DNA of 64,000 nt, from contig CAKUHB010000009.1 in NCBI GenBank assembly GCA_934655875.1, positions 1-64,000 of the forward strand, read 5' to 3'. Shown in pieces: positions 9,512 through 61,448 of the stretch. Below the pieces are notes generated by a model. That model saw nothing but the letters and a program-made list of their open reading frames with translations, did not search any database and was not told where the DNA came from. Position 1 is the stretch's first letter, and each line of letters begins with the position of its first letter. The stretch comes from an uncultured Oscillospiraceae bacterium. GTDB lineage: Bacteria; Bacillota; Clostridia; Oscillospirales; Oscillospiraceae. The position numbers and the translations under genes were made by a program.

Positions 9512-10840
9512 TTACAGCTCTGCCTGCATGGCCTTGAAGATGTCCTCCATGCGGTTGAGCGTGATGTTGATATCCTCCATCGTGTGCTGCGCACTGAAGC
9601 CGTAGTGTGCCGGCGCGGCTGCGCCGCAGTCGTGCATGAACAGGCCGTGCTCGAGCGCCTTCACGAGGAAGCTGTGGGTCATATCCGAACGGTAGCTGTC
9701 GCCGGTCTTTCTCCAGTCGTAATCGTCCTCGGGGTTCTGTACGCCAAAGTAAACGCCGAAGCGTGCGCCGATGCCGCTGACGTGGCCGGGGATGCCGTAC
9801 TGCTGCATCAGCTGATTCATGCCGCCGTAAAGCGCGTCCGCCTTTTCGTTGATCCCGTCATAGAAGCCCGGCTCCATCGCCATCTTCATGCACTCGATCG
9901 AAGCCAGAACCGGCATAAGCGCGCCCGTATATGTTCCGCTCATGATGGTCTTGCCAATGGGGTTCAGGACCTGCATAACCTCACGCTTGCCGCAGAGCGC
10001 TGCAATCGAGAAGCCGCCGCCGATGGCCTTTGCAAATGTACCGAGATCGGGTGTGACACCGTAATAAGCCTGTGCGCAGCCGGGCGCCATCCGCAGGCCG
10101 CAGATGACCTCGTCGAAGATCAGAACGATGCCTTCCTTGGTACACAGATCGCGAACCTTCTCAAGGTATTCTTTTCTTGCCGCGTAGCAGCCGCAGTTAT
10201 AGCTGATCGGCTCCATCATGACCGCAGCGACCTTGCCTTTATTGGCAGCGACAGCCTTCTCCAGCGCGTCAAAGTCATTGAACGGCACATTGCGGACAAC
10301 CTCACTGAAGCATTTCGGCATACCGGCGGTATCCGGAATGTTCTCCACGGTGCCGTCCGCATGAATTTCACCGCGGGCCCCGTTGTGGTTGAACCAGATC
10401 AGCTCGTGCATGCCATGGAAGTGGCCTTCCATTTTGATGATGATGTCCTTCCCGGTGTAGGCGCGCGCCACACGCTCGGCGGCCATCGTGACCTCAGTGC
10501 CGGTGTTGGAAAGGCGGATCATCTCTGCACAGGGAAACATCTTCTGATAGAGCTTTGCCAGCTCTGTGTGATACGGCGTTTCAAAGTTCATGAAGAAGCC
10601 GAGATCCATCGCTTTCTCCGCCGCCGCGCGGAGTCTCGGATGGTTGTGGCCGAAGAAAGCCGCACCGGAACCGGTATGGTAGTCGATGTATTCCTTGCCG
10701 TTGACGTCGTAGATACGGCTTCCATCGGCATGATCCAGATACAGCGGCTGCTGGATGGTGGAATTGAACCGGCCGCCGGCGCTGCCGCCTCCCACGAAGT
10801 ATTTCCGTGCTTCCTCATAAACACTCTTTAACTTATCCAT
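9512..10840 (-). CDS. Class-III (omega) pyridoxal-phosphate aminotransferase
   Basis: 442 aa with the glutamate-1-semialdehyde aminomutase / acetylornithine aminotransferase-like fold, including the FDEVICG..R motif and a PLP-lysine region. It is the first gene of the minus-strand operon. Confidence 0.8.
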   Translation of the reverse strand: MDKLKSVYEEARKYFVGGGSAGGRFNSTIQQPLYLDHADGSRIYDVNGKEYIDYHTGSGAAFFGHNHPRLRAAAEKAMDLGFFMNFETPYHTELAKLYQKMFPCAEMIRLSNTGTEVTMAAERVARAYTGKDIIIKMEGHFHGMHELIWFNHNGARGEIHADGTVENIPDTAGMPKCFSEVVRNVPFNDFDALEKAVAANKGKVAAVMMEPISYNCGCYAARKEYLEKVRDLCTKEGIVLIFDEVICGLRMAPGCAQAYYGVTPDLGTFAKAIGGGFSIAALCGKREVMQVLNPIGKTIMSGTYTGALMPVLASIECMKMAMEPGFYDGINEKADALYGGMNQLMQQYGIPGHVSGIGARFGVYFGVQNPEDDYDWRKTGDSYRSDMTHSFLVKALEHGLFMHDCGAAAPAHYGFSAQHTMEDINITLNRMEDIFKAMQAEL

Positions 10841-11111: not shown

Positions 11112-11759
11112 ATGGCTATCAATACGGAAAGTCTTACTGAACAGCTTGCGACGCTGATCCTGGAAATGATCATGCGCAGAGAGCTGGTCGCCGGTGAGCA
11201 GATCCCAACGAAAAAAATCGCAGAGGATAACAATGTCAGTGTGACGCCGGTCCGTCTCGCGCTGCGTGAGCTGGCAGACCGCAAGCTCGTTGTAAACAAA
11301 GCCCGTGTCGGATATTTTGTGGCGGAATATTCAACGGCCAAGCTGATCGCAATTTCCAACTGCCGCAAGATGTTTGAGCTTTACTGCATGGAGACGTATT
11401 TCGATTCTCTGGATCTTGACCGGCTGCACCGGCTCTATGACAGCATTGAGGAGAATTTTGCCGGTCATTTTGATGAGGTTCGTTACCAGAAGGACGATAT
11501 TGCGCTCCACGAGAGCTTTGTGCTCGCGTCCCACAATGAATTTATCATCACGCAGTATAGCCAGATCAAGGATCTGATCTCCCTGTTCGTGATTTACGAC
11601 AGCGATAACATGGCGCACAATCATCTTTCGCGCGCAGAGCATCTGCGCCTGCTCAACTATATTTTTGATAAGAAAAAAAATGCGGCAATTTTGGAGTTAA
11701 AGAACCATCTTGACCGCACTGACCGCACCTTGCTGGAACTGGATTCAAAAAAAACATAA
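11112..11759 (+). CDS. GntR-family transcriptional regulator (FadR/FCD subfamily)
   Basis: 215 aa with an N-terminal winged HTH (…IPTKKIAEDNNVSVTPVRLALRELADRKLV) and a C-terminal all-helical FCD-like domain. It is divergent from the catabolic operon. Confidence 0.85.
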   Translation: MAINTESLTEQLATLILEMIMRRELVAGEQIPTKKIAEDNNVSVTPVRLALRELADRKLVVNKARVGYFVAEYSTAKLIAISNCRKMFELYCMETYFDSLDLDRLHRLYDSIEENFAGHFDEVRYQKDDIALHESFVLASHNEFIITQYSQIKDLISLFVIYDSDNMAHNHLSRAEHLRLLNYIFDKKKNAAILELKNHLDRTDRTLLELDSKKT

Positions 11760-11798
11760 ATGCGTGCGCATTTCGTGCCAACTTGGAGCGCAGCTGCA

Positions 11799-11830
11799 AC
11801 CTCCGCATCGAAAGATGCGGAGGTTTTTTG
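11799..11830 (+). terminator. Rho-independent terminator after the gntR-family gene
   Basis: The hairpin acctccgcatc-gaaa-gatgcggaggt is followed by TTTTTT. Confidence 0.65.
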
Positions 11831-11944: not shown

Positions 11945-11973
11945 TTGCAATCAGAATACATTTGTATTACGAT
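11945..11973 (+). promoter_or_regulatory. Putative promoter of the RHH-TIR/RCC1 operon (-35 TTGCAA, 17-bp spacer, -10 TACGAT)
   Basis: This is the only reasonable sigma-A-like pair in the 11831-11996 region, followed by the RBS AAAGGAG at 11981-11987. Confidence 0.3.
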
Positions 11974-11996: not shown

Positions 11997-12188
11997 TTGG
12001 TGGAACCGCGTTTGGAGATTCCGGCGAAGAAATACACCGGCGAATCCGCAGTGATTTCCATGCGATTGCCGCGGGATATGCTGCTGGAAATCGACACAAT
12101 CGCAGCCGATACGGGTCGGACAAGAAATGAAGTTTTAACACTCTGCATGGAGTTCGCATTGAACCATCTCGATAAGGAATCGAAATAA
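11997..12188 (+). CDS. Ribbon-helix-helix (CopG/Arc-like) DNA-binding protein, putative operon regulator
   Basis: 63 aa. The beta-strand ISMRLPRDML is followed by two helices (LEIDTIAADTGRTRNEVLTLCMEFAL). TTG or GTG start 10-13 nt after AAGGAG; the start codon is uncertain. Confidence 0.55.
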   Translation: MVEPRLEIPAKKYTGESAVISMRLPRDMLLEIDTIAADTGRTRNEVLTLCMEFALNHLDKESK

Positions 12189-12209
12189 GGCCGAAAGAGA
12201 GAGAACAGA

Positions 12210-15200
12210 ATGGCGATGATCAAGTGCAAGATGTGCGGCGGGGATTTAAACGTCGAAGAAAACAGCCAGATCGCAGTCTGCGAATACTGCGGGACGCAGC
12301 AGACCGTTCCGAAGCAGGATAACGAGAAGAAGCTGACGCTGTTTGCGCGTGCAAACCGGCTGCGCTTTGCCTGCGAATTTGATAAGGCGGCGGGCGTTTA
12401 TGAGTCCATCGTGGCGGAGTTCCCGGAGGAGGCGGAAGCCTATTGGGGGCTTGTGCTCTGCAAATACGGTATTGAATACGTTGACGATCCGGCGACGGGT
12501 AAAAAGGTTCCGACCTGCCACCGGTCGAGCTTTGACAGCGTTCTGGAGGACGCGAACTTTGAGCTGGTCATGGAATACGCCGACGTAGTCACGCGGAAGC
12601 TTTACCGCGAGGAAGCCAAGGCCATCGAGGAGCTGCGGCGCAGGATCATCGAGGTCTCCAGCCGTGAAGAGCCGTATGACATTTTCATCTGCTATAAAGA
12701 GACGGACGAAAACGGCCAGCGGACACTCGATTCCGTCCTGGCGCAGGATTTATATGACGCGCTGACGGAAAAGGGCTACCGGGTATTTTTCTCCCGCATT
12801 ACGCTGGAGGACAAGCTCGGGCAGGAATACGAGCCGTATATCTTCGCCGCGCTCAACTCCGCGCGCGTCATGCTGGCCGTCGGGACGGACTATGAGTATT
12901 TTAACGCCCCGTGGGTCAAGAACGAGTGGAGCCGGTATTTGCAGCGCATCGCCGCCGGGCAGAAGAAATCGCTCATCCCGTGCTATAAAAATATCGACGC
13001 CTACGACATGCCGAAGGAATTTGCAAAGCTGCAGGCACAGGATCTCGGCAAGGTCGGTGCAACGCAGGATCTACTGCGCGGGATCGACAAGCTGCTGGGG
13101 AAAACAAGCACTCCCGCGGTTCCGGTGCAGCCCGCTCCGATGCAGGCTGCTGCTGCGCCGAATGTTGATTCGCTTCTTCGCCGCGGCAATCTGTTTCTGG
13201 AGGACCGCGACTGGACGAACGCAAAAACCTACTTCGATAAGGTTCTGGATATCGTTCCGGAGTGCGGCGCGGCGTATCTGGGGAAATTTCTTGCTGCAAA
13301 GAAGGCAAAAACGGTCGCGTCGTTTGTCCGGCGCTATGTGGAAGACATTGCGGCCCATGCACCGGCGCGCACCCGGCAGGATGCCTGCAAGCCGGACGAG
13401 ACATTCATCGCTGCCTGTCTCAATAAGTATCAGGTGCCGGAATATCTGGACGCACGCGAAATCCGGTCTCTGCTGCGCTTCGATCTTACGTATCATGCCG
13501 GGCTTGCAGACTATTATCACGACTGCTTCCTGCGCGCGGCGCAGATGCTTGGCAGCGAAAAGGACTTTGTCCGTGCTGAAAAGTATGCTGACGCGGATGT
13601 GCAGACGCAATGCGAGCTGCTGCGCAGCAAAATCCTGAACGATCTTCATGCCCGGCAGCAGGCCGCGGAGCAGGAGGAAGCCGGCGAAAAGCAGCGCATC
13701 ACGGAAGCCTATCATACATTTTTAAAGGAAACCGAATCAACGCTCGCCGCACGGCAGAAGGAAGCGCTTGAAAAGAAGAAAGCGCATGACAAGCTCGCGG
13801 AACGGCTGCGGTTGGAACGGGAAAAGCACGAAAAAGCGGCAGCAATCGAGCGGGAAAAGCAGGAAAAGCTGAGAAAAATCGCCGAGCAGGAGGCAAAACA
13901 AAAGGCCGCAAAGGCCCGGAAGCTCACGATCATCGGCGGCACTGCGGCAGCTGTCATCCTCGCAGCCGTGTTGATCATTACAAAGGTCATGATTCCGTCG
14001 CAGAAATATGCCAACGCCGCAGCGCTGCTGGATGCCGGAAACTATGATGACGCCATTTCAGCCTTTGCCGCATTGGGCGAGTATAAGGATTCTGCTGCCA
14101 TGTGCAGCAGCGCCGCGCACGCAAAAGCCTATGCGGAAGCGGAAACACTGCTGGCCGCCGGAGATTATAAGGGCGCGAGCGCCGCATTCGCTGCATTGCA
14201 GGATTATAAGGACGCGGCAAGCCGCGCAGATGCCGCAAGAAGCCAGCAGCTTGAAGCGGAAAACGCACAGGCCTATGCAAATGCGGAAGCACTGCTGGAT
14301 GCCGGAAACTATGCTGCCGCTGCCAAGGCGTTCCAAGCACTCGGCGACTACAAGGACGCGGCAGAGCGTGCGCAGGACTGCCCGTACATAGAAGCCGAGC
14401 AGCTTCTGGCGCAGGGAAAAACCGCAGAAGCCTCCATTGCGTTTGGAAGAATTGCCGGATATAAGGATGCGCTGGAGCGGAGCTTTGCGCTGAGAGCTTC
14501 CAGCGATCCTACAATTATTGCGAAGGACGATCATATCGTTGCGCTGAAAGAGGACGGTACTGTAGTCGCCATCGGCAATAACGAGTATGGGCAATGCGAT
14601 GTTGCCGACTGGACGAATCTTGTGGCAATCGATGCAGGATTCCTCTATACGGTCGGCCTGAAAGCGGATGGGACTGTGCTTGCTGTGGGCTATAACGATG
14701 ATGGCCGATGCAATGTTTCCGATTGGACGGACATCACAGCGATCCGCGCCGGCAGCTATCACACGGTCGGCCTGAAAACAAATGGAACCGTCGTTGCTGT
14801 AGGAGACAACGACTTGGGTCAATGCGATGTTGCCGACTGGACAGATATTACTGCCATCAGTGCCAGAGAGCATCACACGGTCGGTCTCAAGGCAGATGGC
14901 ACGGTAGTCGCCGTGGGCTATAACAGGTTTGGCCAATGCGATGTTTCCGGCTGGACGGATATCGTGGCGATCAGCACGGGGTATAATCACACGGTCGGCC
15001 TGAAAGCAGACGGAACGGTGGTCGCCGCAGGAAATAACGAGGATGGACAATGCGATGTATCTGATTGGACAGATATTGTAGCAATCAAGGCAGCATACAA
15101 ACACACAGTCGGCTTGAAATCGGACGGAACCGTGGTCGCTGTTGGTTTTAATGAATATGGTCAGTGTGACGTTTCAGATTGGACAGATATGATAGCAATT

Positions 15201-15434
15201 GATGCAGCAACTTATCACACGGTTGGTCTGAAAGCGGATGGAACCGTCGTTGCCACAGGAAATAATGGCGATGGGCAATGCAATGTCTCCGATTGGACAG
15301 ATATCGTTGCGGTGAACGCTGGTGGGTGGAATACCGTCGGCCTGAAAGCAGACGGTACCGTGGTCGTTGTTGGCGGTAACGTCGATGACAAGTGCAATGC
15401 TTCCGGCTGGACGGATATCAGGCTCCCCAACTGA
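12210..15434 (+). CDS. Zinc-ribbon / TIR-domain / TPR / single-TM / RCC1-like beta-propeller protein, paralog 1
   Basis: 1074 aa with these regions: an N-terminal CxxC..CxxC ribbon (KCKMCGG…CEYCG); a TIR-like region (DIFICYKETD…GYRVFFSRITLED…APWVKNEWSRYL) carrying the W-x-x-N-E catalytic-Glu motif; TPR-like helices; an E/K/Q-rich coiled coil; a TM helix (LTIIGGTAAAVILAAVLIITKVMIP) with positive residues on its N side; four ~40-aa repeats (A.ALL.AG.Y..A..AF.ALG.YKDA); and about eight RCC1-like blades (HTVGLKADGTVVAVG.N..GQCDVSDWTDI). It ends in IRLPN. Confidence 0.85.
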   Translation: MAMIKCKMCGGDLNVEENSQIAVCEYCGTQQTVPKQDNEKKLTLFARANRLRFACEFDKAAGVYESIVAEFPEEAEAYWGLVLCKYGIEYVDDPATGKKVPTCHRSSFDSVLEDANFELVMEYADVVTRKLYREEAKAIEELRRRIIEVSSREEPYDIFICYKETDENGQRTLDSVLAQDLYDALTEKGYRVFFSRITLEDKLGQEYEPYIFAALNSARVMLAVGTDYEYFNAPWVKNEWSRYLQRIAAGQKKSLIPCYKNIDAYDMPKEFAKLQAQDLGKVGATQDLLRGIDKLLGKTSTPAVPVQPAPMQAAAAPNVDSLLRRGNLFLEDRDWTNAKTYFDKVLDIVPECGAAYLGKFLAAKKAKTVASFVRRYVEDIAAHAPARTRQDACKPDETFIAACLNKYQVPEYLDAREIRSLLRFDLTYHAGLADYYHDCFLRAAQMLGSEKDFVRAEKYADADVQTQCELLRSKILNDLHARQQAAEQEEAGEKQRITEAYHTFLKETESTLAARQKEALEKKKAHDKLAERLRLEREKHEKAAAIEREKQEKLRKIAEQEAKQKAAKARKLTIIGGTAAAVILAAVLIITKVMIPSQKYANAAALLDAGNYDDAISAFAALGEYKDSAAMCSSAAHAKAYAEAETLLAAGDYKGASAAFAALQDYKDAASRADAARSQQLEAENAQAYANAEALLDAGNYAAAAKAFQALGDYKDAAERAQDCPYIEAEQLLAQGKTAEASIAFGRIAGYKDALERSFALRASSDPTIIAKDDHIVALKEDGTVVAIGNNEYGQCDVADWTNLVAIDAGFLYTVGLKADGTVLAVGYNDDGRCNVSDWTDITAIRAGSYHTVGLKTNGTVVAVGDNDLGQCDVADWTDITAISAREHHTVGLKADGTVVAVGYNRFGQCDVSGWTDIVAISTGYNHTVGLKADGTVVAAGNNEDGQCDVSDWTDIVAIKAAYKHTVGLKSDGTVVAVGFNEYGQCDVSDWTDMIAIDAATYHTVGLKADGTVVATGNNGDGQCNVSDWTDIVAVNAGGWNTVGLKADGTVVVVGGNVDDKCNASGWTDIRLPN

Positions 15435-15455
15435 CGAAGAAAGAAGGACGAGAAG

Positions 15456-18400
15456 ATGGCAATTATTAAATGTAAGATGTGCGGCGGGGATATTGAGATC
15501 TCTGCGGACAAGACGTTTGGGACGTGCGAATACTGCGGCAGCACGATGACGCTGCCCAAAGTGGACGACGAGCAGCGGGCGGCGGCGTTTAACCGCGGCA
15601 ATCACTTTAGGCGCAGCGGCGAGTTTGACAAGGCGCTGGCCGTGTATGAGCGAATCGTTGCCGAGGACGACAACGACGCCGAAGCGCACTGGTGCTGCGC
15701 GCTGTGCCGGTTCGGCATTGAATATGTGGAGGATCCGGCGACGTATGAATGGCTGCCGACGTGCCACCGCGCGAGCTTCGACAGCTTCTTGGAGGACGTG
15801 GACTATCTGGCTGCGGTCGCGCATTCCGACGGCATCACCCGCCGCCAGTACCAGAAGGACGCAGCGAAAATCGCCGAGGTGCAGCGCGGGATTCTCGCCA
15901 CGTCGCAGAACGAGCAGCCGTTCGACGTCTTCCTCTGCTACAAGGAGACCGGCGAGGACGGCCAGCGCACGCGCGACAGCCTGATGGCGCAGGAGGTCTA
16001 TTACGAACTGACCGAGCAGGGCTACCGCGTATTCTTCGCGCGCATCACGCTGGAAGATAAAGCGGGCGCGGAATATGAACCGTATATCTTTGCGGCGCTG
16101 AACTCCGCGAAGGTCATGGTCGTGATCGGCACGAAGCCGGAGCATTTTAACGCCGTCTGGGTCAAGAACGAATGGAGCCGCTTCCTGTCCATGATGAAAA
16201 AGGATCGGAGCAAGCTGCTCCTGCCGTGCTACCGGGACATGGATCCGTATGACCTGCCGGAAGCACTGTCGGTGCTGCAAAGCTATGACATGAGCAAGAT
16301 CGGCTTCATGCAGGATCTGATCCGCGGCGTCAAAAAGGTGCTCGACGCGGGCAAACCGCAGGAGGCTGCGAAAGAAACGGTCAAGGAGACCGTCGTGGTA
16401 CATAACGAGGGCGGCAGCAACGTGCAGGCCCTGCTCAAGCGCGGCAACATGGCGCTGGAGGACGGCGAATGGAGCAAGGCAGACGAGTTCTTTGAGCAGG
16501 TACTCAATCAGGACGCGGAGTGCGGCGCGGCGTATCTGGGGAAGTTTTTGAGCAGCAGAAAAGCAAAAAGCGTGCAGGCGTATTTGCAGAGCTGTTGCAA
16601 AAGAATAGCAAGCAACGCGCCGACCGCACAAAAGAGCAGCGCCTGTGAGGAAGACAGCGCGTTTATCGATGCCTGCGTGAAAAAGTATCAGGTGCCGGAC
16701 TATTACACCCCGGAGGACATTCACAAGGCGCTTACCCATGACCGGCTCTACTGCGCGGATCGCGCGGCGTATTTCCGCGAAGCGCAGAAGGAGTTCAATC
16801 AAGCACTGAGCGCCGACCGGAACTTTGTCCGCGCGGAAAAATTCGCCGACAGCGAAACAAAAGCGCAGTGCGGCACACTGCGCAGCGAGACCATGACTCT
16901 CCTGCGTCAGCAGGAGCAGCAGGCAGAGCAGGAAGCGGCTGCGGAAAAGCAGCGCGTTACCGAGGCCTATCACGCGTTCTTGCGCGAGACTGAGCCAAAG
17001 CTGGCCGAGAAACAGAAGCAAGGTCTTGCGAAGCAGGAAGAGGATCAAAAACGCAAGGAGGAATTTGAACGCCTGCGCGCGGAACAGAAAAAGCGTGCAG
17101 AGGAAGCAGAGAAACTCGCCGCACAGGAAGCAGCGCTAAAGGCTGCAAAGGCAGCAAAGGCGAAAAAGCTTACGCTTATCTGTGCTGCGGTGGCTGCTGC
17201 TGTCATTGCGGTGGTGTTGATCGTCACTCAAGTCATCATCCCATCTGCAAACTATTCCAAGGCTGAGAAGCTGCTGACTGCTGGCGATTATGACAGCGCA
17301 ATCACGGCATTCGCAGCTCTAGGCAATTACAAGGACGCAGCGGAGAAGATTACGCAGGCAAAAGAGCAGAAAGAAAACGAGCGTCTTGCCAAAGAAGCAG
17401 CTGAGGAGGAAGCCAGAAACGCGCAGGCATATGCCGATGCAGAAGCGCTGCTGGCAAGCGGGGATTACGACGGTGCTATCGCTGCTTTTACAGATCTGGG
17501 CGAGTATCAGGATGCTGCCGACCGGGTAAAGGCCATAGAAGCACAGAAAGCCGAGGAAAAAGCCAAAAAGGTGGAAGCGAAAAATGCGCAGGCATATCAG
17601 GAAGCGGTTTCTCTGCTGGAAAGCGGTAATTATTCAAAAGCGTCTGACGCATTTGCTAAACTTGGCAGCTACAAAGATGCGGCTATTCGGCGGAAAGAGT
17701 GCCAGTATCAAATGGCCGACCAGCTTCAAAATGATGGCGATACTGCTGCCGCTGCGGTAACGTTTGGGAAAGCCTGTGGATTCAACGACGCAAAAGAGCG
17801 TAGTCTGGCACTCTGGAATGTCATTGCCAAAAGAGATGTTATTGCGGCAAGCTGGGGATACACCGTTGGAGTGAAAGCAGATGGGACAGTTGTTGCAACC
17901 GGTGAAAATGATGACGGGCAATGCAATGTATCCAAATGGAAAGATATTATCGCCGTAGCAGCTGGATACGGGCACACGGTCGGCTTGAAGGCAGATGGGA
18001 CCGTGGTCGCTACCGGAAATAATGATGATGGTCAATGCAACGTGTCCGGTTGGAGCAACATTGTCGCAGTTGCAGCAGGATCCAGCCACACAGTTGGTCT
18101 GAAAATTGACGGAACTGTTGTTACCGCTGGCAGCACCATATGCGGTGAATCTAATTGGAGCGATATTATTTCTATAGCAGCCAACACCATTGTGACAGTT
18201 GGTCTGAAAACAGACGGGACAGTAGTTGACAAACCTTCTTGGTATAGCATTACCGCAGTGGCAGCCGGCGGCGTACACACAGTTGGGCTTAAAATGGACG
18301 GAACAGTTATTGCCACTGGCAGCAACGACCATCGGCAATGCAACGTATCTGACTGGAATAATATTATCGCGGTGGCAGCAGGCACCGACCACACTGTTGC

Positions 18401-18608
18401 AGTGAAATCAAATGGCACTGTTGTTGCCGCCGGTGAGAACGAAGATGGTCAGTGCAATGTATCTGGTTGGAGTAGTATCATTGCCGTGGCAGCAGGGTTC
18501 GACCACACTGTTGGCTTGAAGTCAGACGGAACTGTCGTTGCGGCCGGTGATAATTATTACGGTCAATGCAACGTTTCCAACTGGAAGAACATCAAGCTCC
18601 CCAATTGA
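15456..18608 (+). CDS. Zinc-ribbon / TIR / TPR / TM / RCC1-like protein, paralog 2
   Basis: 1050 aa with the same architecture. TIR motifs FDVFLCYKETGEDGQRT…VWVKNEWSRFL. TM helix LTLICAAVAAAVIAVVLIVTQVII. The RCC1 blades run to the C-terminus, which ends NIKLPN. The 22-bp junction with paralog 1 (gaaagaaggacgagaagATGGCAATTAT) is near-identical to the next junction. Confidence 0.85.
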   Translation: MAIIKCKMCGGDIEISADKTFGTCEYCGSTMTLPKVDDEQRAAAFNRGNHFRRSGEFDKALAVYERIVAEDDNDAEAHWCCALCRFGIEYVEDPATYEWLPTCHRASFDSFLEDVDYLAAVAHSDGITRRQYQKDAAKIAEVQRGILATSQNEQPFDVFLCYKETGEDGQRTRDSLMAQEVYYELTEQGYRVFFARITLEDKAGAEYEPYIFAALNSAKVMVVIGTKPEHFNAVWVKNEWSRFLSMMKKDRSKLLLPCYRDMDPYDLPEALSVLQSYDMSKIGFMQDLIRGVKKVLDAGKPQEAAKETVKETVVVHNEGGSNVQALLKRGNMALEDGEWSKADEFFEQVLNQDAECGAAYLGKFLSSRKAKSVQAYLQSCCKRIASNAPTAQKSSACEEDSAFIDACVKKYQVPDYYTPEDIHKALTHDRLYCADRAAYFREAQKEFNQALSADRNFVRAEKFADSETKAQCGTLRSETMTLLRQQEQQAEQEAAAEKQRVTEAYHAFLRETEPKLAEKQKQGLAKQEEDQKRKEEFERLRAEQKKRAEEAEKLAAQEAALKAAKAAKAKKLTLICAAVAAAVIAVVLIVTQVIIPSANYSKAEKLLTAGDYDSAITAFAALGNYKDAAEKITQAKEQKENERLAKEAAEEEARNAQAYADAEALLASGDYDGAIAAFTDLGEYQDAADRVKAIEAQKAEEKAKKVEAKNAQAYQEAVSLLESGNYSKASDAFAKLGSYKDAAIRRKECQYQMADQLQNDGDTAAAAVTFGKACGFNDAKERSLALWNVIAKRDVIAASWGYTVGVKADGTVVATGENDDGQCNVSKWKDIIAVAAGYGHTVGLKADGTVVATGNNDDGQCNVSGWSNIVAVAAGSSHTVGLKIDGTVVTAGSTICGESNWSDIISIAANTIVTVGLKTDGTVVDKPSWYSITAVAAGGVHTVGLKMDGTVIATGSNDHRQCNVSDWNNIIAVAAGTDHTVAVKSNGTVVAAGENEDGQCNVSGWSSIIAVAAGFDHTVGLKSDGTVVAAGDNYYGQCNVSNWKNIKLPN

Positions 18609-18629
18609 TAGAGAAAGAAGGACGAGAAG

Positions 18630-21458
18630 ATGGCAATTATGAAATGTAAGATGTGCGGCGGGGATATTGAGATCTCGGCGGACAAGACCTTCGGAACGTG
18701 TGAATACTGCGGCAGCACGATGACGCTGCCGAAGACGGATGACGACCAGCGGCTGAGCTTATTCAACCGCGGCACGCATCTGCGGCGCAACGGTGAATTT
18801 GACAAGGCTGCGGCGATCTATGAGCGGCTGATCGGTGAGAACGACGCGGACGCGGAAGCGCACTGGAACCTGCTGCTCTGCCGGTACGGCATCGAGTATG
18901 TGCAGGATCCGGCCTCCGGCGAGCGTATCCCGACCTGCCACCGCGCGAGCTTTGACAGCATTCTGAACGATGTGGACTATCAGGCCGCGCTGCAATACTC
19001 CGACGGCGTGGCGCGGAGCCTGTATGAAAAGGAAGCGCAGCGCATTGCTGCGCTGCAAAGGGACATTCTGGCGATCTCGCAGAAGGAATCGCCGTTCGAC
19101 GTGTTCATCTGCTACAAAGAATCCGACGAGAACGGCAGGCGCACGAAGGATTCCGCGCTGGCGCAGGATATTTACTACCAGCTCACCGACGCGGGCTATA
19201 AGGTCTTCTTCGCGCGCATCACGCTGGAGGATAAGCTCGGACAGGAATACGAGCCGTATATCTTTGCCGCCCTGCACTCGGCAAAGGTCATGGTTGTGGT
19301 CGGCACGAAGCCGGAATACCTGAACGCTGTCTGGGTCAAAAACGAGTGGAGCCGGTATCTCGCGCTCATGCGCACCGACCGCAGCCGCCTGCTCATCCCC
19401 TGCTACCGCGATATGGATCCGTATGATATGCCGGAAGAGCTCAGCATGCTGCAAAGTCAGGACATGGGGCGGATCGGGTTCATTCAGGATCTCATCCGCG
19501 GCGTCAGAAAAGTCGTAGACGCGGCAAAGCCGCAGCCGGAGCAGCCGTCCGCCGCGGCGGACGCCGGGACGAAGACCGCGCCGCTCCTGCGCCGCGGCAC
19601 GCTCTTTCTGGAGGACGGCGACTGGGCCAACGCAAACCAGTATTTTGAAAAGGTGCTGGACGCCGCGCCGGAGTGCGCGGAAGCGTATCTCGGAAAATTC
19701 CTCGCGCAGAATCACGCAAAGTCCGCCGCGGACTATGCAAACGCCCGTCTTGCGGACATTGTCAGGCACGCGCCGTCCATCAAAAACACGGACGCGTGCG
19801 CGGCGGACGGTGCATTTATCTCCGCCTGCACAGAAAAATATCAGGTCGACGGATATCTGAGCAGTCAGGAGATCACCAGAATGCTTTCCGCCTTTGACCG
19901 GCAGTATTGCAGTCAGGCGGCCTATTACCGCACCGCGGCGGAGACGGCAAGAAGCGAACTGGACACAGACCGCAATCTGACCCGCGCCCGGCAGTTCGGC
20001 TCGGACAAGACCCGCGCCCAATGCCAGAGCATCTGCGACAGCCTGTTCGGCCCGCTGGCGGAAAAGCTCCGCCAGTGCGAAGAGGAAGACGCCCGCCAGG
20101 CGCGCAGCATCCGCGAGGACTACGCCGCCTTTCTGAAAAAGGCGGAGGAAAAAGTCACCGCACGCTCCGAGCAGCTGCGGCAGAAAGAAGCACAGGCACA
20201 GCTCGAGCAGGAGCGGCAGCAGCGCGAAGCGGAGGAAGCGGAGCGCCAGCGCCGTCTGGAGGAGCTTCACCAGCTGGCAAAGGCCCGCCGGAAACAGACG
20301 GCCAAAAAGATCGCCAGGGGCGCGGTCGTTGCCGGGCTGCTGCTGGCCGCGGCTCTCAGCTTTTTGAAGTTTGCGAACCGGAAGTATGATCAGGCGGTGG
20401 CGCTCGCCGCGGAGGGCAGCTATGCGCAGGCCGCGGAAGCGTTCGACGAGCTGAAAACCTACAGAGACAGCAAGGAGCAGTTCGCGGAGAACATGCGTCT
20501 GGCCGGAGAAGCGTATCTGGCGTCGGGCGAGACGGCGCGCGCCGCCATGTGCTACGCAAAGATCGGCGATCCGGAAAGCATGGAAAAAAGCTATGCGCTG
20601 TGGGACACGGTCGCGGTGCGGAAGACGATCTCCGTCGGATATAACTACACCGCCGCGTTGAAAGACGACGGCACGGTCGTATTTACCGACAGGCACGCGT
20701 TTGACTCCTCGCCCGCGGGCTGGCACGACATCATCGCGATCGCCTGCGGCGACGACCATCTGCTCGGCCTGCGGGCAGACGGCAGCGTCTGCGCAGCCGG
20801 ACGGAATACAAAAGGCGAATGCGACGTTTCCGACTGGAAAAACATCGTGGCGATTGCCGCAGGGATGGACTACTCGGTCGGCCTGCGGGCGGACGGAACG
20901 GTCGTCACGGCTGGACGGAAGGACAATGGCAACCACAAGACCGGCGACTGGACAGATATCGTAGCGATCGACGCCAAGAGCCTACAGGCCGTCGCCCTGA
21001 AAGCGGACGGAACCGTGATCATGACCGGGGATACGGATAGTGAGAAGACGCTGGTGGAAAGCTGGACGGATATCAAGGCGATCTCGGCCGGATGGTTCCA
21101 CACGGTCGGGATCAAGCAGGACGGAACAGTCGTTGCGGCGGGACATGACACCGATGGTGCCTGCGACGTCGGCAGCTGGAGCAATATCTGCGCAGCGGTC
21201 GGCGGCGGAAGCACAAAGTTTGACTACACGATCGGTCTGCGGACGGACGGCACGCTGGTCGTGACGCGTCCGGAAAGCGTGGAAGCCGGCTCCGCACGTG
21301 ACATTGCCGGCTGGAGCAGCATTGTCGCAGTTGCGACAGGCACAGATACGGAAAAGCTCACCCTTGGTCTGCGGTCGGACGGCACGGTCGTCGCCGTGGG
21401 CGATACGGACGGCATTGATCTGAGCGAATGGACAAATATCAAGCTCCCAAACAGATAA
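18630..21458 (+). CDS. Zinc-ribbon / TIR / TPR / TM / divergent RCC1-like protein, paralog 3
   Basis: 942 aa. The N-terminal ~300 aa are about 80-90% identical to paralog 2 at the start. TIR motifs FDVFICYKESDENGRRT…VWVKNEWSRYL. TM helix VVAGLLLAAALSFLKFA. There are fewer YKDA repeats, and the propeller blades are degenerate (several lack the GQC motif). It ends NIKLPNR. Confidence 0.85.
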   Translation: MAIMKCKMCGGDIEISADKTFGTCEYCGSTMTLPKTDDDQRLSLFNRGTHLRRNGEFDKAAAIYERLIGENDADAEAHWNLLLCRYGIEYVQDPASGERIPTCHRASFDSILNDVDYQAALQYSDGVARSLYEKEAQRIAALQRDILAISQKESPFDVFICYKESDENGRRTKDSALAQDIYYQLTDAGYKVFFARITLEDKLGQEYEPYIFAALHSAKVMVVVGTKPEYLNAVWVKNEWSRYLALMRTDRSRLLIPCYRDMDPYDMPEELSMLQSQDMGRIGFIQDLIRGVRKVVDAAKPQPEQPSAAADAGTKTAPLLRRGTLFLEDGDWANANQYFEKVLDAAPECAEAYLGKFLAQNHAKSAADYANARLADIVRHAPSIKNTDACAADGAFISACTEKYQVDGYLSSQEITRMLSAFDRQYCSQAAYYRTAAETARSELDTDRNLTRARQFGSDKTRAQCQSICDSLFGPLAEKLRQCEEEDARQARSIREDYAAFLKKAEEKVTARSEQLRQKEAQAQLEQERQQREAEEAERQRRLEELHQLAKARRKQTAKKIARGAVVAGLLLAAALSFLKFANRKYDQAVALAAEGSYAQAAEAFDELKTYRDSKEQFAENMRLAGEAYLASGETARAAMCYAKIGDPESMEKSYALWDTVAVRKTISVGYNYTAALKDDGTVVFTDRHAFDSSPAGWHDIIAIACGDDHLLGLRADGSVCAAGRNTKGECDVSDWKNIVAIAAGMDYSVGLRADGTVVTAGRKDNGNHKTGDWTDIVAIDAKSLQAVALKADGTVIMTGDTDSEKTLVESWTDIKAISAGWFHTVGIKQDGTVVAAGHDTDGACDVGSWSNICAAVGGGSTKFDYTIGLRTDGTLVVTRPESVEAGSARDIAGWSSIVAVATGTDTEKLTLGLRSDGTVVAVGDTDGIDLSEWTNIKLPNR

Positions 21459-21473
21459 GAGAGGAAGAACGCA

Positions 21474-23333
21474 ATGAGCAAATTTGTAATTGAATGCCCC
21501 AAATGCGGGAAATACGCCGAAGCCAGCACCGGCCTGTTTGCAAAACGGAGGATCCCCTGCACGTGCGGGCACGCCATCGACGTGCGTACGGAACGGCTCG
21601 CGACCCGCGAATGCCCGCACTGCGGCAATACCGTCCTCTATGACCAGTCCAAGGGCGAAAAGGCGCTCTGCCCCGTCTGCCATACGCCGGTCAACACGAC
21701 GGCCCTTCAGCTCAAGACCGTGGAATTTTCCTGCGCGCAGTGCGGCATCCAGCTGCACGCGAGCAAGGCGGATACGACCTGCATCTGCCCCGTCTGCGGC
21801 TGCGAGAACGACGTGGAGCAGCGCGTCACGACCGACCGGATCAAAAAGGACGGTCTTGCCAGCATCATCAAATACGAGGGCGACAACGAGACCTTCGTCT
21901 GGAAGCACCCGATCGAGGACTTCAACTTCGGCTCGCAGCTGATCGTCCATGAGAGTCAGGAAGCGATCTTCTTCCGCGACGGGCAGGCACTCGACCTCTT
22001 CGGCGCGGGCCGCTACACGCTGCAAACGCAGCAGCTGCCGCTGCTGGAGAAGATCTACAAGCTCCCGACCGACACCGAGGGCACGTTCCATTCCGAGGTC
22101 TATTTCATCAACCTCGCCACCCAGATGGGCGTCAAATGGGGCACGGACAGCAAAGTCCGGATGTTTGACCCTGCGTCCCACCTGCCGATCGAGATCGGCG
22201 CGTCGGGCGAATTTAATATCCGCGTGACCGACTCGCGCAAGCTTCTTTTGAAGGTCGTCGGCACGACGGGCGGGCTTGGGCAGGAGCAGCTGCTGGGCAT
22301 CGGGAACGGCAAGGGCTTCTTCCGCTCGATGGTCATGACGCAGGTGAAAAGCTACCTTGCGCAGACGATCAAGGAAAACGCCATCGACATTCTGGAGATC
22401 GACGAGCACCTCATGGCGCTCTCCGGCGCGCTGCGCGAGCGGATCAACGCCGCGCTGGATGAATACGGCCTGACGATGCCGGAATTTTACGTCAGCCGTA
22501 TCGTAACGCCGGACGACGACCCCAATTTCCGCCGCATGAAGGAGCAGCACGCCGAGCAGTATCTGCTCGTCCGGCAGGAGAACATCCGCAAAGCCGAAGC
22601 CGAAGCCGCGGCAGGCCGCAAGGCGGTCGAAGCGCAGACGGCTGCCCACCTGAAGATCATCGGCGCGCAGGGCGACGCGGAAGCACTCAAGATCCAGAAG
22701 CAGGCCGAAGCCGAAGCCTATCGCATGCAGGCCGAAGCCGAAGCCGCCGAAATGCACATGAAGGGCTACAGCTATCAGCAGGAGTCCGCCCGGCAGGTCG
22801 GTCTGGAAGCGATGAAAAATGGCCTTGGCGGCGGCGCGAATGCTGCGGGCGCGCTGGGCGATCTCGCGGGGCTTGGTGTAAGTCTTGGCGCAATGGGCAG
22901 TGTCATCGGCATGACGAAGGATGCGCTGAACCCCATGACGCAGGACGCCGCGCAGATGGGCGCGGCCGTCGGTGCAGCCGGCACAGGCGGCTGGGACTGC
23001 CCGGCGTGCGGACACAAAAACATCACCACGAACTTCTGCCCCGACTGCGGCGGCAAAAAGCCCGAAGCAAAAACCGGCTGGGACTGCGCACAGTGCGGCA
23101 CAAAGAACATCCAGAGCAGATTCTGCCCGAACTGCGGCGCAAAGAAGCCGGAGGAGCCGAAGGGCTGGATCTGCCCGGACTGCGGCACGAAAGATATCAC
23201 GACGAACTTCTGCCCCAACTGCGGCACGAAGAAGCCGGAGGCGCCAAAGGGCTGGATCTGCCCGGACTGCGGCACGAAGGATATCATGACGAACTTCTGC
23301 CCGAACTGCGGACGGAAGAAGGAGGAGACATAA
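21474..23333 (+). CDS. SPFH/band-7 (YdjI-like) protein with three N-terminal and four C-terminal zinc ribbons
   Basis: 619 aa. N-terminal CPKCG…CTCGH, CPHCGN…CPVCH and CAQCG…CPVCGC ribbons precede a central SPFH-like domain (…FVWKHPIEDFNFGSQLIVHESQEAIFFRDGQALD…) and an A/E/Q-rich coiled coil. Four tandem 29-aa repeats GW(D/I)CP.CG.K.I...FCP.CG.KKPE, about 87 bp each, make up the 22985-23330 DNA region. Confidence 0.8.
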   Translation: MSKFVIECPKCGKYAEASTGLFAKRRIPCTCGHAIDVRTERLATRECPHCGNTVLYDQSKGEKALCPVCHTPVNTTALQLKTVEFSCAQCGIQLHASKADTTCICPVCGCENDVEQRVTTDRIKKDGLASIIKYEGDNETFVWKHPIEDFNFGSQLIVHESQEAIFFRDGQALDLFGAGRYTLQTQQLPLLEKIYKLPTDTEGTFHSEVYFINLATQMGVKWGTDSKVRMFDPASHLPIEIGASGEFNIRVTDSRKLLLKVVGTTGGLGQEQLLGIGNGKGFFRSMVMTQVKSYLAQTIKENAIDILEIDEHLMALSGALRERINAALDEYGLTMPEFYVSRIVTPDDDPNFRRMKEQHAEQYLLVRQENIRKAEAEAAAGRKAVEAQTAAHLKIIGAQGDAEALKIQKQAEAEAYRMQAEAEAAEMHMKGYSYQQESARQVGLEAMKNGLGGGANAAGALGDLAGLGVSLGAMGSVIGMTKDALNPMTQDAAQMGAAVGAAGTGGWDCPACGHKNITTNFCPDCGGKKPEAKTGWDCAQCGTKNIQSRFCPNCGAKKPEEPKGWICPDCGTKDITTNFCPNCGTKKPEAPKGWICPDCGTKDIMTNFCPNCGRKKEET

Positions 23334-25010
23334 ATGGCGGCAAAGCTGGAATGTGAAATCTGCGGCGGCAAGCTGATCGGCAAGCCCGGCGGCATCTTCG
23401 AGTGCGATTCCTGCGGCATGGAGTATTCCACCGAATGGGCCAAGGCCAAAATTCAGGAAATCAAAGGCACGGTCAAGGTCGAGGGCACGGTCGAGGTCAC
23501 CGGCAAGGTACAGGTCGAAGGCGGCACAGTGCAGGTCGAGGGCGCGGTGACAAAAGAGAGTCTTCTCAAGCGCGCGGAGATGTGCTGCGCGGAGAAGGAC
23601 TGGGGCAAAGCAAAGGCGCTGATTGAACAGGTTCTGAATATCGACCCGGAGTGCGGCGAAGCGTATCTGACCTCGGTGATGGTAGAGCGGGTCATGCAGT
23701 CAAAAGAAGACCTCCACGCATACTGCACCAACGCCATCCTTCCTCTGCCGCAAGGGAAAAACATGGAGCGCGCACAGCAGTTCCTGCCGGAGCTTTTTGC
23801 ACAATGGAAAGAAGAAAAAGAGCGCAACTACGCAGCGTATCTTAAGAAATACGAGGAAAGCGGCGCAGCGCAGCTGCGTGCGCGCTATGCAAAGACAGAT
23901 GGACTGCTGGTCTGTGGGTATCCCGGCCTGCTCGGGATTCGAACAGACGGAACTGTTCTGGTATCGGCAACAGAAACGCGGGAGCCGGACGCCGCCGCGA
24001 TCCGGCAGTGGGATGAGATCACAACAATTGCTTGCGGCGTGAATCATACAGTTGGCCTTCGGGCAGACGGCACAGTCGTCGCCGTTGGAAAAAATGGTAG
24101 CGGCCAGTGCAATGTTGAGAAATGGCGAAACATCACAGCAATTGCTTGCGGCGGGAATCATACAGTTGGCCTTCGGGCAGACGGTACGGTCGTTGCTGTC
24201 GGAGCAAATGAAAATGGACAGTGCAATGTCAGGGACTGGCGGGACGTCACAGCAATTGCTTGCGGCGATAGCCATACGGCTGGTCTTCGGGCAGACGGTA
24301 CGGTCGTTGCAGCCGGATGCAATGAAGAGCAGTGCAATGCCATCAAGGGCTGGCGGGATATTACCGCAATCGCCTGTAGCGGATCCCATACCGTCGGTCT
24401 CCGGGCAGACGGCACAGCGGCTGCGACAGACTATCCGAATTGTGAAAACTGGCGCGACGTTGTCTCGCTTGTGTGCAATGGCGAGTATGGTCTGCGGAAG
24501 AACGGGACGCTTGCGCCGAGCTGGGGCAATCTGTGCTGCGGCTGGTCGGACATTATCGCCGTTTCGGGTTATGGCAGTCATATCTCCGCGCTGCGCAGCG
24601 ACGGAACGGTTATATGCGCTGGCGGCGGAGAAAGCCAAAAGTGGACGGATATCGTCAGCATTTGCAGCATCCTCGATAAGGTGTATGGCATACGGAAAGA
24701 CGGTACCGTCGTGGCGGCTGGCGAATCTCATAGAGATGTTTCCGGCTGGCGCTTATTTAACAGTATTGATACCTTGGAACAGGAGCGCACGAAAGGACTG
24801 GCACGTGCCCGGGCCGAACACCTTGCAAAGGAAAAGGCCAAAGCTGATCGCATCGCACAGAAAAAAGCAGAGCTTCAGGCTGAACGGGACGAACTGCAAG
24901 CAGAGCTTTCGCAGCTCAAGGGGCTGTTTTCCGGCAAGCGCCGAAAAGAAATTGAACTTCTGCTGACCGTCAACCGGTATGAGCTTCAGGAATTGGAGGA
25001 ACAGGCATGA
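23334..25010 (+). CDS. Soluble zinc-ribbon / TPR / RCC1-like repeat protein (no TIR, no TM)
   Basis: 558 aa with an N-terminal CEICGG…CDSCG ribbon, a (K/T)VEGTV repeat, one TPR-like unit, at least 7 RCC1-like blades (NHTVGLRADGTVVAVG.N..GQCNV..W.DITAIACG) and a C-terminal coiled coil. The start overlaps the preceding stop (TAAATGG). Confidence 0.8.
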   Translation: MAAKLECEICGGKLIGKPGGIFECDSCGMEYSTEWAKAKIQEIKGTVKVEGTVEVTGKVQVEGGTVQVEGAVTKESLLKRAEMCCAEKDWGKAKALIEQVLNIDPECGEAYLTSVMVERVMQSKEDLHAYCTNAILPLPQGKNMERAQQFLPELFAQWKEEKERNYAAYLKKYEESGAAQLRARYAKTDGLLVCGYPGLLGIRTDGTVLVSATETREPDAAAIRQWDEITTIACGVNHTVGLRADGTVVAVGKNGSGQCNVEKWRNITAIACGGNHTVGLRADGTVVAVGANENGQCNVRDWRDVTAIACGDSHTAGLRADGTVVAAGCNEEQCNAIKGWRDITAIACSGSHTVGLRADGTAAATDYPNCENWRDVVSLVCNGEYGLRKNGTLAPSWGNLCCGWSDIIAVSGYGSHISALRSDGTVICAGGGESQKWTDIVSICSILDKVYGIRKDGTVVAAGESHRDVSGWRLFNSIDTLEQERTKGLARARAEHLAKEKAKADRIAQKKAELQAERDELQAELSQLKGLFSGKRRKEIELLLTVNRYELQELEEQA

Positions 25011-25702
25011 AACAGGACAAAGGAAAAACCCAGACGCTTCTGATCCTCGCCATTGTGCTGGCGGCGTATCTGGTGCTGGCATTCGTGATCCCATTTGCAA
25101 AGACCGGCGTGTTCTGGCTGGCGCTGGTGTTTACGCTGGCGGCGTTCGGCTTGCAGCTGTATGTGATGAAGCTGTCGTTTACAAAGGGCAAGGACGCGCG
25201 AAGCAAGTTCTACGGCTTCCCGATTGCCCGCGTCGGCGCGGTGCACCTGATCGTGCAGCTCGTGCTGAGCTTCCTGTTCATGGCGCTCGCCGCATACTGC
25301 CCGGCATGGGTCGCCGCCGTCATCTTTGTGGTGCTGCTGGCCGCCGCTGCCGTCGGCGTTGTTGCGGCAGACGCAATGCGCGACGAGGTCGAGCGGCAGG
25401 ACGTGCAGCTCAAAACGGACGTGGCCGCCATGCGCACGCTGCAATCGCGCGCGGCAGCGCTGGTTGCCCGCTGCGAGGACGCGGCACTGCGGGCTGACGC
25501 GCAGAAGCTTTCGGACGCGTTCCGGTACAGCGATCCCGTGACAAATCCCGCAACGAGCGCCGCAGAGCACGAGCTTTCCGCCTGCATGGACGAGCTGGAG
25601 CGCGCCGCGCTTGACGGCGATGTTGAAAACGCAAAGACGCTGATCCGGCGCACCGCCGCCCAGCTCTCAGAGCGCAACCGCCTGTGCAAGCTGAATAAAT
25701 AA
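25007..25702 (+). CDS. Four-TM membrane protein with a C-terminal cytoplasmic helical domain (last gene of the operon)
   Basis: 231 aa with four hydrophobic helices in the first 130 aa followed by an A/R/D-rich helical tail. ATGA overlap with the upstream gene. Confidence 0.7.
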   Translation: MKQDKGKTQTLLILAIVLAAYLVLAFVIPFAKTGVFWLALVFTLAAFGLQLYVMKLSFTKGKDARSKFYGFPIARVGAVHLIVQLVLSFLFMALAAYCPAWVAAVIFVVLLAAAAVGVVAADAMRDEVERQDVQLKTDVAAMRTLQSRAAALVARCEDAALRADAQKLSDAFRYSDPVTNPATSAAEHELSACMDELERAALDGDVENAKTLIRRTAAQLSERNRLCKLNK

Positions 25703-25746: not shown

Positions 25747-25790
25747 GGCGGGCCTGATATTCCGGGAATATCAGGCCCGCTTTGTGCTTC
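25747..25790 (+). terminator. Rho-independent terminator of the TIR/RCC1 operon
   Basis: Perfect hairpin gcgggcctgatatt-ccggg-aatatcaggcccgc followed by TTTGTGCTTCTT. Confidence 0.75.
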
Positions 25791-48878: not shown

Positions 48879-48994
48879 CCGCAGTCCCCCTCGTCCGTTC
48901 CGATGGACAAAGCTTACACCCGGCGGGCAGAAAAAAGCGGTCGCAATTCCATGCGGAATTGCGGCCGTTCGTTCGTCAGGTTTTCCTTGCAATG

Positions 48995-49186: not shown

Positions 49187-49245
49187 ACTGCATCTCCTTC
49201 TTTCCCCCGTCTGCATATATTGGAGGAGAAACGGGGGAATGATCT

Positions 49246-61403: not shown

Positions 61404-61406
61404 AAA

Positions 61407-61448
61407 GCACCGGCGTACTGGATCCAGTACGCCGGTGCCTGATTTTTT
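61407..61448. terminator. Bidirectional rho-independent terminator between the convergent pseudouridine-synthase and ricT genes
   Basis: The 16-bp stem gcaccggcgtactgga-tc-cagtacgccggtgc is flanked by TAAAAA on its left and CTGATTTTTT on its right. Confidence 0.7.

Follow-up and report, generated by a model that had tools for sequence, protein, structure and literature searches.

A TIR/SPFH/four-helix membrane protein gene cluster, widespread in gut Firmicutes and apparently undescribed

A 64,000-nucleotide stretch of the genome of an uncultured Oscillospiraceae bacterium (contig CAKUHB010000009.1 of assembly GCA_934655875.1, positions 1 to 64,000 of the forward strand; hereafter the window) carries a seven-gene operon, g1 to g7, that combines three large TIR proteins with an SPFH-zinc ribbon protein and a protein with four transmembrane (TM) helices. 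These analyses lead us to conclude that one or more TIR-bearing head proteins, the SPFH-zinc ribbon protein and the 4-TM protein, with or without a putative ribbon-helix-helix (RHH) regulator, form a conserved unit; that the TIR proteins join a constant head to a variable tail; and that the cluster is widespread in gut Firmicutes and, apparently, undescribed. Whether it is, as we propose, a dedicated surveillance system of gut Firmicutes, in which several TIR sensors would work in Thoeris-like fashion with a membrane platform or effector, is in our judgement evenly balanced.

A first-pass annotation of the window, made from its letters alone, had read TIR domains with an intact catalytic glutamate in g2, g3 and g4, and domain and fold searches bear this out. 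The Pfam model TIR_2 (aa 158-282) matches all three proteins above its gathering score of 28 bits, with 48.4 bits for g2 (E 1.6e-12), 39.8 for g3 (E 7.6e-10) and 48.2 for g4 (E 1.8e-12). In an AlphaFold2 (AF2) model of g2 residues 1-310 (pLDDT 79), a zinc ribbon, paired helices, a beta-hairpin and two long helices are followed by the strand/helix alternation of a TIR domain (aa 158-296). The top 30 Foldseek matches of this model in the PDB are all TIR domains, with probability 1.0 and target-normalised TM-scores of 0.48-0.70; its matches include plant L7, MAL, Roq1, SNC1, SPARTA and AbTir with the NAD analogue 3AD. Structure model and fold search thus both answer the earlier concern that the region might not be a TIR fold. 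To our knowledge, all well-characterised bacterial TIRs with a WxxxE motif are immune or NAD+-consuming effectors. In g2, g3 and g4 alike the motif reads WVKNE at aa 235-239, with the glutamate at residue 239, and in a sequence search of solved structures the g2 motif aligned with WPARE of Brucella TcpB. Mutation of WxxxE abolishes the function of ThsB (10.64898/2026.01.22.701046).

At a hydropathy threshold of 1.7, each of the three proteins has one hydrophobic helix, beginning at aa 572 in g2 and g3 and at aa 561 in g4. Beyond it lies an RCC1 propeller, recognised by RCC1_2 of Pfam in g2 (E 2.4e-55, seven stretches), g3 (3.6e-46, six stretches) and g4 (1.4e-26), as also in the related protein g6 (2.1e-33); these four RCC1 proteins have six or seven blade motifs each. 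The single TM helix fused to a propeller, as first described, therefore stands on both hydropathy and RCC1_2 matches. Five to six Lys/Arg residues precede the helix in g2-g4 and two to three follow it, and the excess falls on the N-terminal side in all 37 single-TM members of the family. This bias places the zinc ribbon-TIR half in the cytoplasm and the 360-480 C-terminal residues outside. We therefore predict that g2-g4 are type II (N-in/C-out) proteins with a cytoplasmic TIR domain and an external stalk and propeller; the extracytoplasmic propeller of the first reading agrees with the positive-inside rule. TPR-like stalk repeats occur almost only after TM helices (eight of the nine homologs that have them).

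The head defines a large family. With the first 298 residues of g2 as query, 3030 proteins were retrieved, and a pattern scan at one genome per species confirmed at least 585 relatives. The best 80 of these have heads of 64-79% identity and come from Oscillospiraceae, Ruminococcaceae, Acutalibacteraceae, Lachnospiraceae (Blautia, Roseburia), Christensenellales and Erysipelotrichales of human, ruminant, horse and bird guts; the family as a whole falls in the orders Oscillospirales, Lachnospirales, Christensenellales and Erysipelotrichales. In the family alignment a constant head of about 295 residues is followed by a conserved TPR motif and then by unrelated sequence. All 112 homologs compared share, without exception, W235, E239, the YKE residues of strand beta-A and the four cysteines of the ribbon.

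The tails, by contrast with the heads, are of many kinds. Among 98 complete homologs we found RCC1 (28), DUF6273 (25), BspA-type LRR_5 (5), MORN (3), LRR_8 (3) and WG repeats (1), besides others. DUF6273 is the C-type-lectin-like scaffold of phage receptor-binding proteins diversified by diversity-generating retroelements (DGRs) (PMC10743442); no DGR template/variable repeat pair was found in the head-gene loci. TM helices are absent from 67 of 112 complete proteins, single in 35 and several in 10. RCC1 tails are found both in soluble form (20) and behind a TM helix (11), so that the membrane-spanning propeller is one variant of a modular family. The architecture that had first drawn attention is thus present in the window but is not what defines the family: about 60% of members have no TM helix, and the tails vary.

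The same division is seen at short evolutionary range. In close relatives of the window locus, whose g7 proteins are 79-85% and SPFH proteins 81-95% identical to those of the window, the g2-, g3- and g4-type heads are 94-99% identical. Identity collapses at about residue 300, and the tails are 20-70% identical or replaced altogether: g3-type proteins range from 883 to 1027 aa, g4-type proteins from 913 to 1113 aa, and most g2-type genes have a wholly different tail of 335 aa. Nor is the complement of g2, g3, g4 and g6 constant between contigs. Compared as DNA, the heads share 89-95% identity overall; at third codon positions the figure is 72-86%, versus 63-69% for g7. This third-position divergence implies that the heads have diverged synonymously under strong purifying selection, and that their identity does not simply reflect recent transfer. 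A constant head with a variable tail, in one to five paralogs per locus, is the signature of recognition receptors under conflict.

To define what travels with the heads, window proteins were compared by tblastn with 79 head-gene loci from different species. An SPFH-zinc ribbon homolog is present in 42 of the 79 and a g7 homolog in 39. The two genes are always co-directional, and the g7 homolog starts about 1.0-1.7 kb past the start of the SPFH-domain match, that is, immediately downstream; a single locus, arranged like the window, has a g6-type gene in between. When metagenome loci were instead anchored on g7, a search that returned close relatives only, every locus with sufficient upstream flank had an SPFH gene (59 of 59) and a head gene (43 of 43). 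No further shared family emerged among 937 clustered open reading frames (ORFs) of the 79 loci. Head proteins, SPFH-zinc ribbon protein and 4-TM protein, plus or minus RHH, are therefore the conserved unit. The suggestion that all seven genes form a dedicated system survives in this reduced form: these partners do co-occur, while g6 and the number of TIR paralogs vary. A gene set of the g1-g7 type was found again in the genomes of about 40 other species, a recurrence that makes it more than a chance assembly, and human-gut metagenome contigs, Hadza samples among them, carry identical proteins in unchanged order. Cultured bacteria also carry the cluster: Pseudoflavonifractor capillosus An827 (locus L014), with its genes ordered as in the window, Blautia sp. 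HCP3S3_H10_2 (L011), Lachnospiraceae bacterium NE2001 (L029) and Ruminococcaceae bacterium YRB3002 (L052).

Next in frequency among the neighbours in the 79 loci come generic ABC ATPases, together with large serine recombinases in five loci. The latter, with Resolvase, Recombinase and Zn_ribbon_recom domains, stand beside the cluster in about 5 of the 79 loci (L058 included), a hint of occasional carriage on integrative elements; the window copy has none. Two IMG/VR contigs classed as viral (L164 and L165) carry head genes of 55-57% identity together with SPFH and, in one of them, g7, near the contig end.

In the window, ORF calls agree with the seven co-directional plus-strand genes of the first-pass annotation (Table 1). 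From g1 to g7 the intergenic distances are 21, 21, 21, 15, 0 and -4 nt. The junctions had been given as 22 and 16 bp, each off by one, and as overlaps for the last two pairs; g5 and g6 in fact abut, and the overlap of g6 and g7 stands. On either side of g1-g7 stands one of the two strongest terminator-like hairpins of the region, consistent with the single unit between terminators that had been proposed. No Rfam element was found within the cluster.

Table 1. Features of the g1-g7 operon and its boundaries (window coordinates).
Feature	Position	Strand	Length	Description
GntR+FCD gene	11112-11759			Pfam assignment; upstream neighbour of the unit
Upstream terminator	11798-11825	+		Intrinsic terminator of the gntR-family gene; 12-bp stem, 7 GC pairs, T run; upstream boundary of the unit
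g1 promoter	11945-11973	+		-35 TTGCAA (11945-11950), -10 TACGAT (11968-11973), 17-nt spacing
Palindrome	11955-11968			AATACA-TT-TGTATT (AATACATTTGTATT); in the spacer of the g1 promoter and sharing one base, the first, with the -10; candidate RHH operator
g1	11997-12188	+	63 aa	Ribbon-helix-helix-like regulator; TTG start after an AAGGAG ribosome-binding site
g2	12210-15434	+	1074 aa	Zinc ribbon (C6, C9, C24, C27) - TPR-like helices - TIR (aa 157-296; WVKNE aa 235-239, Glu codon 12924-12926) - TPR/coiled coil - TM (aa 572-590, nt 13923-13979) - stalk of three TPR-like repeats - RCC1 propeller (7 blades, aa ~780-1070)
g3	15456-18608	+	1050 aa	Paralog of g2 (48% identity), same architecture with RCC1 propeller; Glu codon 16170-16172; TM aa 572-590 (nt 17169-17225)
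g4	18630-21458	+	942 aa	Third paralog (42-45% identity to g2 and g3); Glu codon 19344-19346; TM aa 561-579 (nt 20310-20366); RCC1 propeller more degenerate
g5	21474-23333	+	619 aa	Three zinc ribbons (aa 8-110) - Band_7_1 SPFH (aa ~149-378) - coiled coil and Gly/Ala-rich low-complexity segment (aa ~440-500) - four zinc ribbons (aa 507-612, nt 22995-23318)
g6	23334-25010	+	558 aa	Soluble; zinc ribbon, family TPR motif, RCC1 propeller, coiled coil
g7	25007-25702	+	231 aa	4-TM protein, N-in, C-in
Closing terminator	25747-25781	+		Intrinsic; 16-bp stem, 9 GC pairs; strongest of the region

The SPFH protein g5 was confirmed as a protein of seven zinc ribbons, three N-terminal and four C-terminal Cys4 modules around a Band_7_1 domain (E 1.7e-36; DZR and Zn_ribbon_3 of Pfam also match). 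It has no TM helix at the hydropathy threshold used. The C-terminal ribbons, each of the form W-x-C-x2-C...C-x2-C, stand in tandem with the pattern W-x-C-x2-C-x3-[ND]-x5-C-x2-C, which we take to be one residue short of the eukaryotic RanBP2-type zinc finger; in an operon full of RCC1 repeats, such a likeness is probably a coincidence. Close relatives have a g5 form of 649 aa with one extra repeat.

Downstream of g5, the second loop of g7 is rich in Lys/Arg, and about 100 cytoplasmic residues form a conserved bundle of helices with the motifs RDEVERQD, FRYSDPV and ERNRLCKLNK. At cut-off g7 belongs to no family of Pfam, NCBIfam, PADLOC or PHROG; its sole match, to the unrelated DUF1145 family of NCBIfam, reaches 16.5 bits against a cut-off of 118, and its fold matches are generic helical ones.

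The remaining protein, g6, resembles g2-g4 without TIR domain or TM helix and is a variable accessory gene, being present, absent or divergent among close relatives. Its terminal coiled coil ends with GLFSGKRRKEIE, an instance of the motif G[LFM]F[ST]GK[KR]RKE[IL] (aa 530-540, nt 24921-24953). Of 65 soluble head proteins, 7 have this motif at their C terminus or close to it (loci L006, L007, L010, L023, L030, L043 and L078); none of the 44 with TM helices does. The motif may be a docking or membrane-association motif that replaces the TM helix.

The first gene, g1, scores 16.7 bits with RHH_1 of Pfam, below the cut-off of 20.5, and has a weak PHROG match to a transcriptional repressor (E 1e-4). 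RHH homologs of 41-66% identity are the first cluster gene in 19 of the 79 loci, 15-62 nt (in one locus 255 nt) upstream of a TIR-head or SPFH gene. The palindrome in the g1 promoter is perfect. A generic promoter scan of the region did not pick up the g1 site; the promoter/palindrome block can nevertheless be aligned across the upstream regions of distant loci, whose RHH proteins are 54-66% identical. As a motif it occurs once in the window against 0 occurrences expected by chance, and in the other loci examined it stands immediately ahead of the RHH gene or, in one case, of a head gene. This pattern supports a putative autoregulation of the operon by g1 through the promoter palindrome. In locus L041 the palindrome/-10 block (9947-9964) precedes a head gene with no RHH gene in front, the RHH gene lying 2 kb downstream, which suggests that more than one promoter may be regulated in trans.

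The window locus is embedded among metabolic and core genes. Upstream lie genes for 6-phosphogluconate dehydrogenase, a PfkB kinase, two M24 peptidases, a sugar ABC transporter, an aminotransferase and the GntR regulator; downstream are a VWA-SLH surface protein, TfoX, LysR and the ATP synthase operon and, farther on, aconitase, isocitrate dehydrogenase and DNA polymerase III delta'. No genes of mobile elements flank the locus, as had been noted at first pass. The surface protein (VWA + Flg_new_2 + SLH, secreted, 1313 aa, 25978-29919) stands directly past the terminator behind its own promoter-like region. It is probably unrelated to the cluster, because the synteny is limited to the same species and the gene is absent beside the clusters of relatives. 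Elsewhere in the window, the long ORFs at 38870-43579 (-), 48222-50153 (+) and 61279-62994 (+) have no Pfam match at E 1e-5; in a sequence of 58-64% GC, some of them may be non-coding shadow frames of genes on the opposite strand.

How might such a unit work? We propose that each TIR protein would combine a constant head (zinc ribbon, helical region, WxxxE TIR) with a swappable, ligand-binding tail, which would either be cytosolic or, as predicted for g2-g4, be displayed outside the cell as stalk and propeller on the N-in/C-out helix. Binding of a ligand to the tail, possibly one derived from a phage or another invader, would cluster the heads and switch on TIR chemistry, either NAD+ cleavage or production of an ADP-ribose-derived signal or both. 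Soluble g5 and its partner g7 would then form a sub-membrane platform that organises the heads, or act as a membrane effector, while g1 would autoregulate the operon through the promoter palindrome. The first-pass annotation had supposed NAD+ depletion in an antiphage or envelope-stress role, which the cluster may have.

Several observations weigh against a surveillance system of this kind. The surroundings of the window copy are ordinary chromosome. PADLOC gave no sign of defence-gene enrichment in the flanks, returning isolated matches, one member per family and mostly generic, in what was a rough test, with no formal background, of the 139 proteins flanking the first 67 loci (out of 79) in scan order. 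No signal-binding effector domain (SLOG, Macro, SAVED, CARF and the like) was recognisable in the operon with Pfam, PADLOC or NCBIfam. Conservation of the head across orders, at 65-80% identity, is far above that of typical immune proteins. About half of the head-anchored loci have neither SPFH nor g7 within the sequence available, eight of them with large flanks, so head genes orphaned at their own locus exist. Finally, the closest characterised relative of g5, YdjI, protects against membrane stress and is not an immunity protein (PMC8581546).

A more specific form of the surveillance reading, which we hold tentatively and rate well below the general one, is that these are receptor-type TIRs. 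A type II protein would use a propeller, LRR or lectin ectodomain to detect a ligand outside the cell, such as an adsorbing phage, a piece of cell wall or a host factor, and pass the signal to a catalytic TIR domain held in an SPFH microdomain, while its soluble siblings would watch the cytoplasm. If this were so, hundreds of commensal species would possess a bacterial equivalent of Toll-like receptor logic whose output runs through a new SPFH/4-TM module. We provisionally class the locus with TIR-based surveillance, with a real chance that it is a receptor-type system without bacterial precedent.

The main competing explanation is that the cluster is not immune at all and is instead a module for envelope or cell-surface signalling and membrane homeostasis. 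In such a module the tails would respond to cues from the wall, the membrane or the environment (host or glycan), the TIR domain would make an NAD-derived messenger or tune local NAD+, and remodelling or protection of the membrane would fall to the YdjI-like SPFH protein and its membrane partner, as with PspA-YdjGHI of B. subtilis. Much of the evidence just listed fits this idea: g5 has the defining layout of YdjI and an adjoining gene for an integral membrane partner, the chromosomal contexts are ordinary and not enriched for defence islands, and the strong conservation of the head is what would be expected of housekeeping signalling. The external stalk and propeller and the neighbouring VWA-SLH protein would also suit a role at the cell surface. 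However, no locus has pspA, YdjG-like or YdjH-like (TPM) genes in its cluster, and about 60% of the tails are cytosolic. Tail replacement and hypervariation at the level of strains are, moreover, commoner in conflict systems than in homeostatic sensors, and the well-characterised bacterial TIRs with WxxxE are immune or NAD+-consuming. We consider this explanation somewhat unlikely.

It is less probable still, though worth considering, that the TIR heads are non-catalytic assembly modules, which would tether variable binders to an SPFH microdomain without NAD+ chemistry, organising for instance surface adhesins or cytosolic clients. Animal TIR domains are mainly oligomerisation scaffolds, so there is precedent for such a role. 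The zinc ribbons common to g2-g6 suggest a common protein-protein interface, and conservation throughout the 295-residue head would fit multiple binding interfaces. Yet a pure scaffold would not need W235, E239 and the beta-A YKE residues, which are the same in all 112 homologs, and there is no sign of how soluble tails would gain from being tethered. A pure scaffold role is thus disfavoured by the invariance of WxxxE.

Membership of an already named system (Thoeris I-XI, a CBASS or Pycsar effector, Avs, SPARTA, PDC-S66) is very unlikely, since the weak TIR-level similarity to PDC-S66 and ThcB4, at about 21-22 bits, stands against g5-g7 that fall below every PADLOC and NCBIfam cut-off and an operon in which Pfam recognises none of the effector and sensor domains named below. 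In PADLOC the best match among g1-g7 is PDC-S66, at 20.7-22.4 bits in the TIR segments of g2 and g4, with none for g3 and none of any kind for g5, g6 or g7; NCBIfam gives none for g5 and g6, and its Thoeris type III model ThcB4 reaches about 21 bits against a cut-off of 220. That the locus matches no named defence family, as first supposed, is therefore upheld to the extent that no cut-off was reached in either collection. SLOG, Macro, caspase, SIR2, STING, SAVED, pAgo and STAND NTPase domains were all absent from the operon by Pfam. A 2025 survey describes 29 putative Thoeris types on the basis of TIR clusters chosen by their nearness to known defence genes; its main text and part of its supplements contain no mention of SPFH, Band_7, RCC1 or zinc ribbon. 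The head/SPFH/4-TM family would fail that choice. As far as the flank test goes, its loci lie outside defence islands and so would fall into a blind spot of defence discovery by guilt by association.

If the surveillance reading is right, the commensal Clostridia that dominate human and animal guts would carry, as standard equipment, a large and as yet unnamed TIR system. This system would bring with it a receptor family that, like pattern-recognition receptors, couples a fixed catalytic head to fast-swapped recognition tails, and TIR proteins whose sensor lies outside the cell. An SPFH scaffold with a novel membrane protein would serve as output or platform, tying membrane microdomains to TIR signalling. 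Variation of the tails between strains could shape phage-host range in key gut taxa, and the conserved head would offer a clean target for biochemistry.

Among known systems, TIR-STING, TIR-SAVED, SPARTA TIR-APAZ and Avs/bNACHT-TIR likewise hold sensor and TIR domain in one chain, and the expected chemistry, NAD+ depletion on oligomerisation, would be the same. They differ in their sensors, for the proteins described here have no nucleotide-binding sensor, Argonaute or STAND NTPase and instead carry propeller, LRR, lectin-like or MORN tails; they differ also in that the cluster has an obligate, conserved SPFH/4-TM partner set.

That partner set has parallels of its own. In SPFH-NfeD pairs (QmcA-YbbJ, stomatin-NfeD) an SPFH gene is also strictly adjacent to the gene of a small membrane protein, and by analogy the pairing suggests that an SPFH assembly may enclose or regulate its membrane partner. 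However, g7 has four TM helices and a helical bundle where NfeD has an OB-fold, and g5 belongs to the TM-less Band_7_1 branch. Closer to g5 is YdjI of Bacillus subtilis, which has a Band_7_1 SPFH domain, no TM helix, a low-complexity segment, one or more C-terminal zinc fingers and an adjacent membrane partner. YdjI depends on two membrane proteins, YdjG and YdjH, and is a recruiter of PspA (PMC8581546, PMC11237479). In place of pspA, the TPM-domain YdjH and the zinc ribbon-NTF2-TM protein YdjG, the g1-g7 cluster has TIR proteins; Pfam finds no PspA, TPM or NTF2-like domain in the operon, and g5 has three extra N-terminal ribbons and four tandem C-terminal ones.

Thoeris offers the nearest parallel at the level of system design. 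It shares WxxxE TIR proteins and the presence of several divergent TIR paralogs (compare multiple thsB genes) beside one set of non-TIR partners, and some of its types have membrane-spanning effectors. It is the effectors that define the types of Thoeris (SIR2-SLOG, TM-Macro, SLOG-nuclease and caspase and, more recently, DUF2270, DUF6650, SLATT, CMP hydrolase and others), whereas in the g1-g7 cluster the TIR proteins are partnered by an SPFH-zinc ribbon protein and a novel 4-TM protein, with no described effector domain. The TIR proteins, too, are unlike those of Thoeris: they are of large size, join an unvarying zinc ribbon/TPR head to repeat tails that would act as sensors, and in 40% of cases are membrane-anchored. 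The loci of the family show no association with defence islands.

Lastly, the arrangement predicted for g2-g4 recalls Toll-like and other animal and plant TIR receptors, in which external ligand-binding repeats (LRRs in some homologs of the family, a propeller here), a single TM helix and a cytoplasmic TIR domain are likewise combined, and in which the signalling domain is constant and the recognition domain variable. The orientation is opposite, the proteins of the window being type II with an N-terminal TIR domain, and most members of the family are soluble. The likeness is one of convergent domain assembly, not of orthology, and the family's TIR domain keeps the enzymatic WxxxE glutamate typical of bacterial, plant and SARM1 TIRs.

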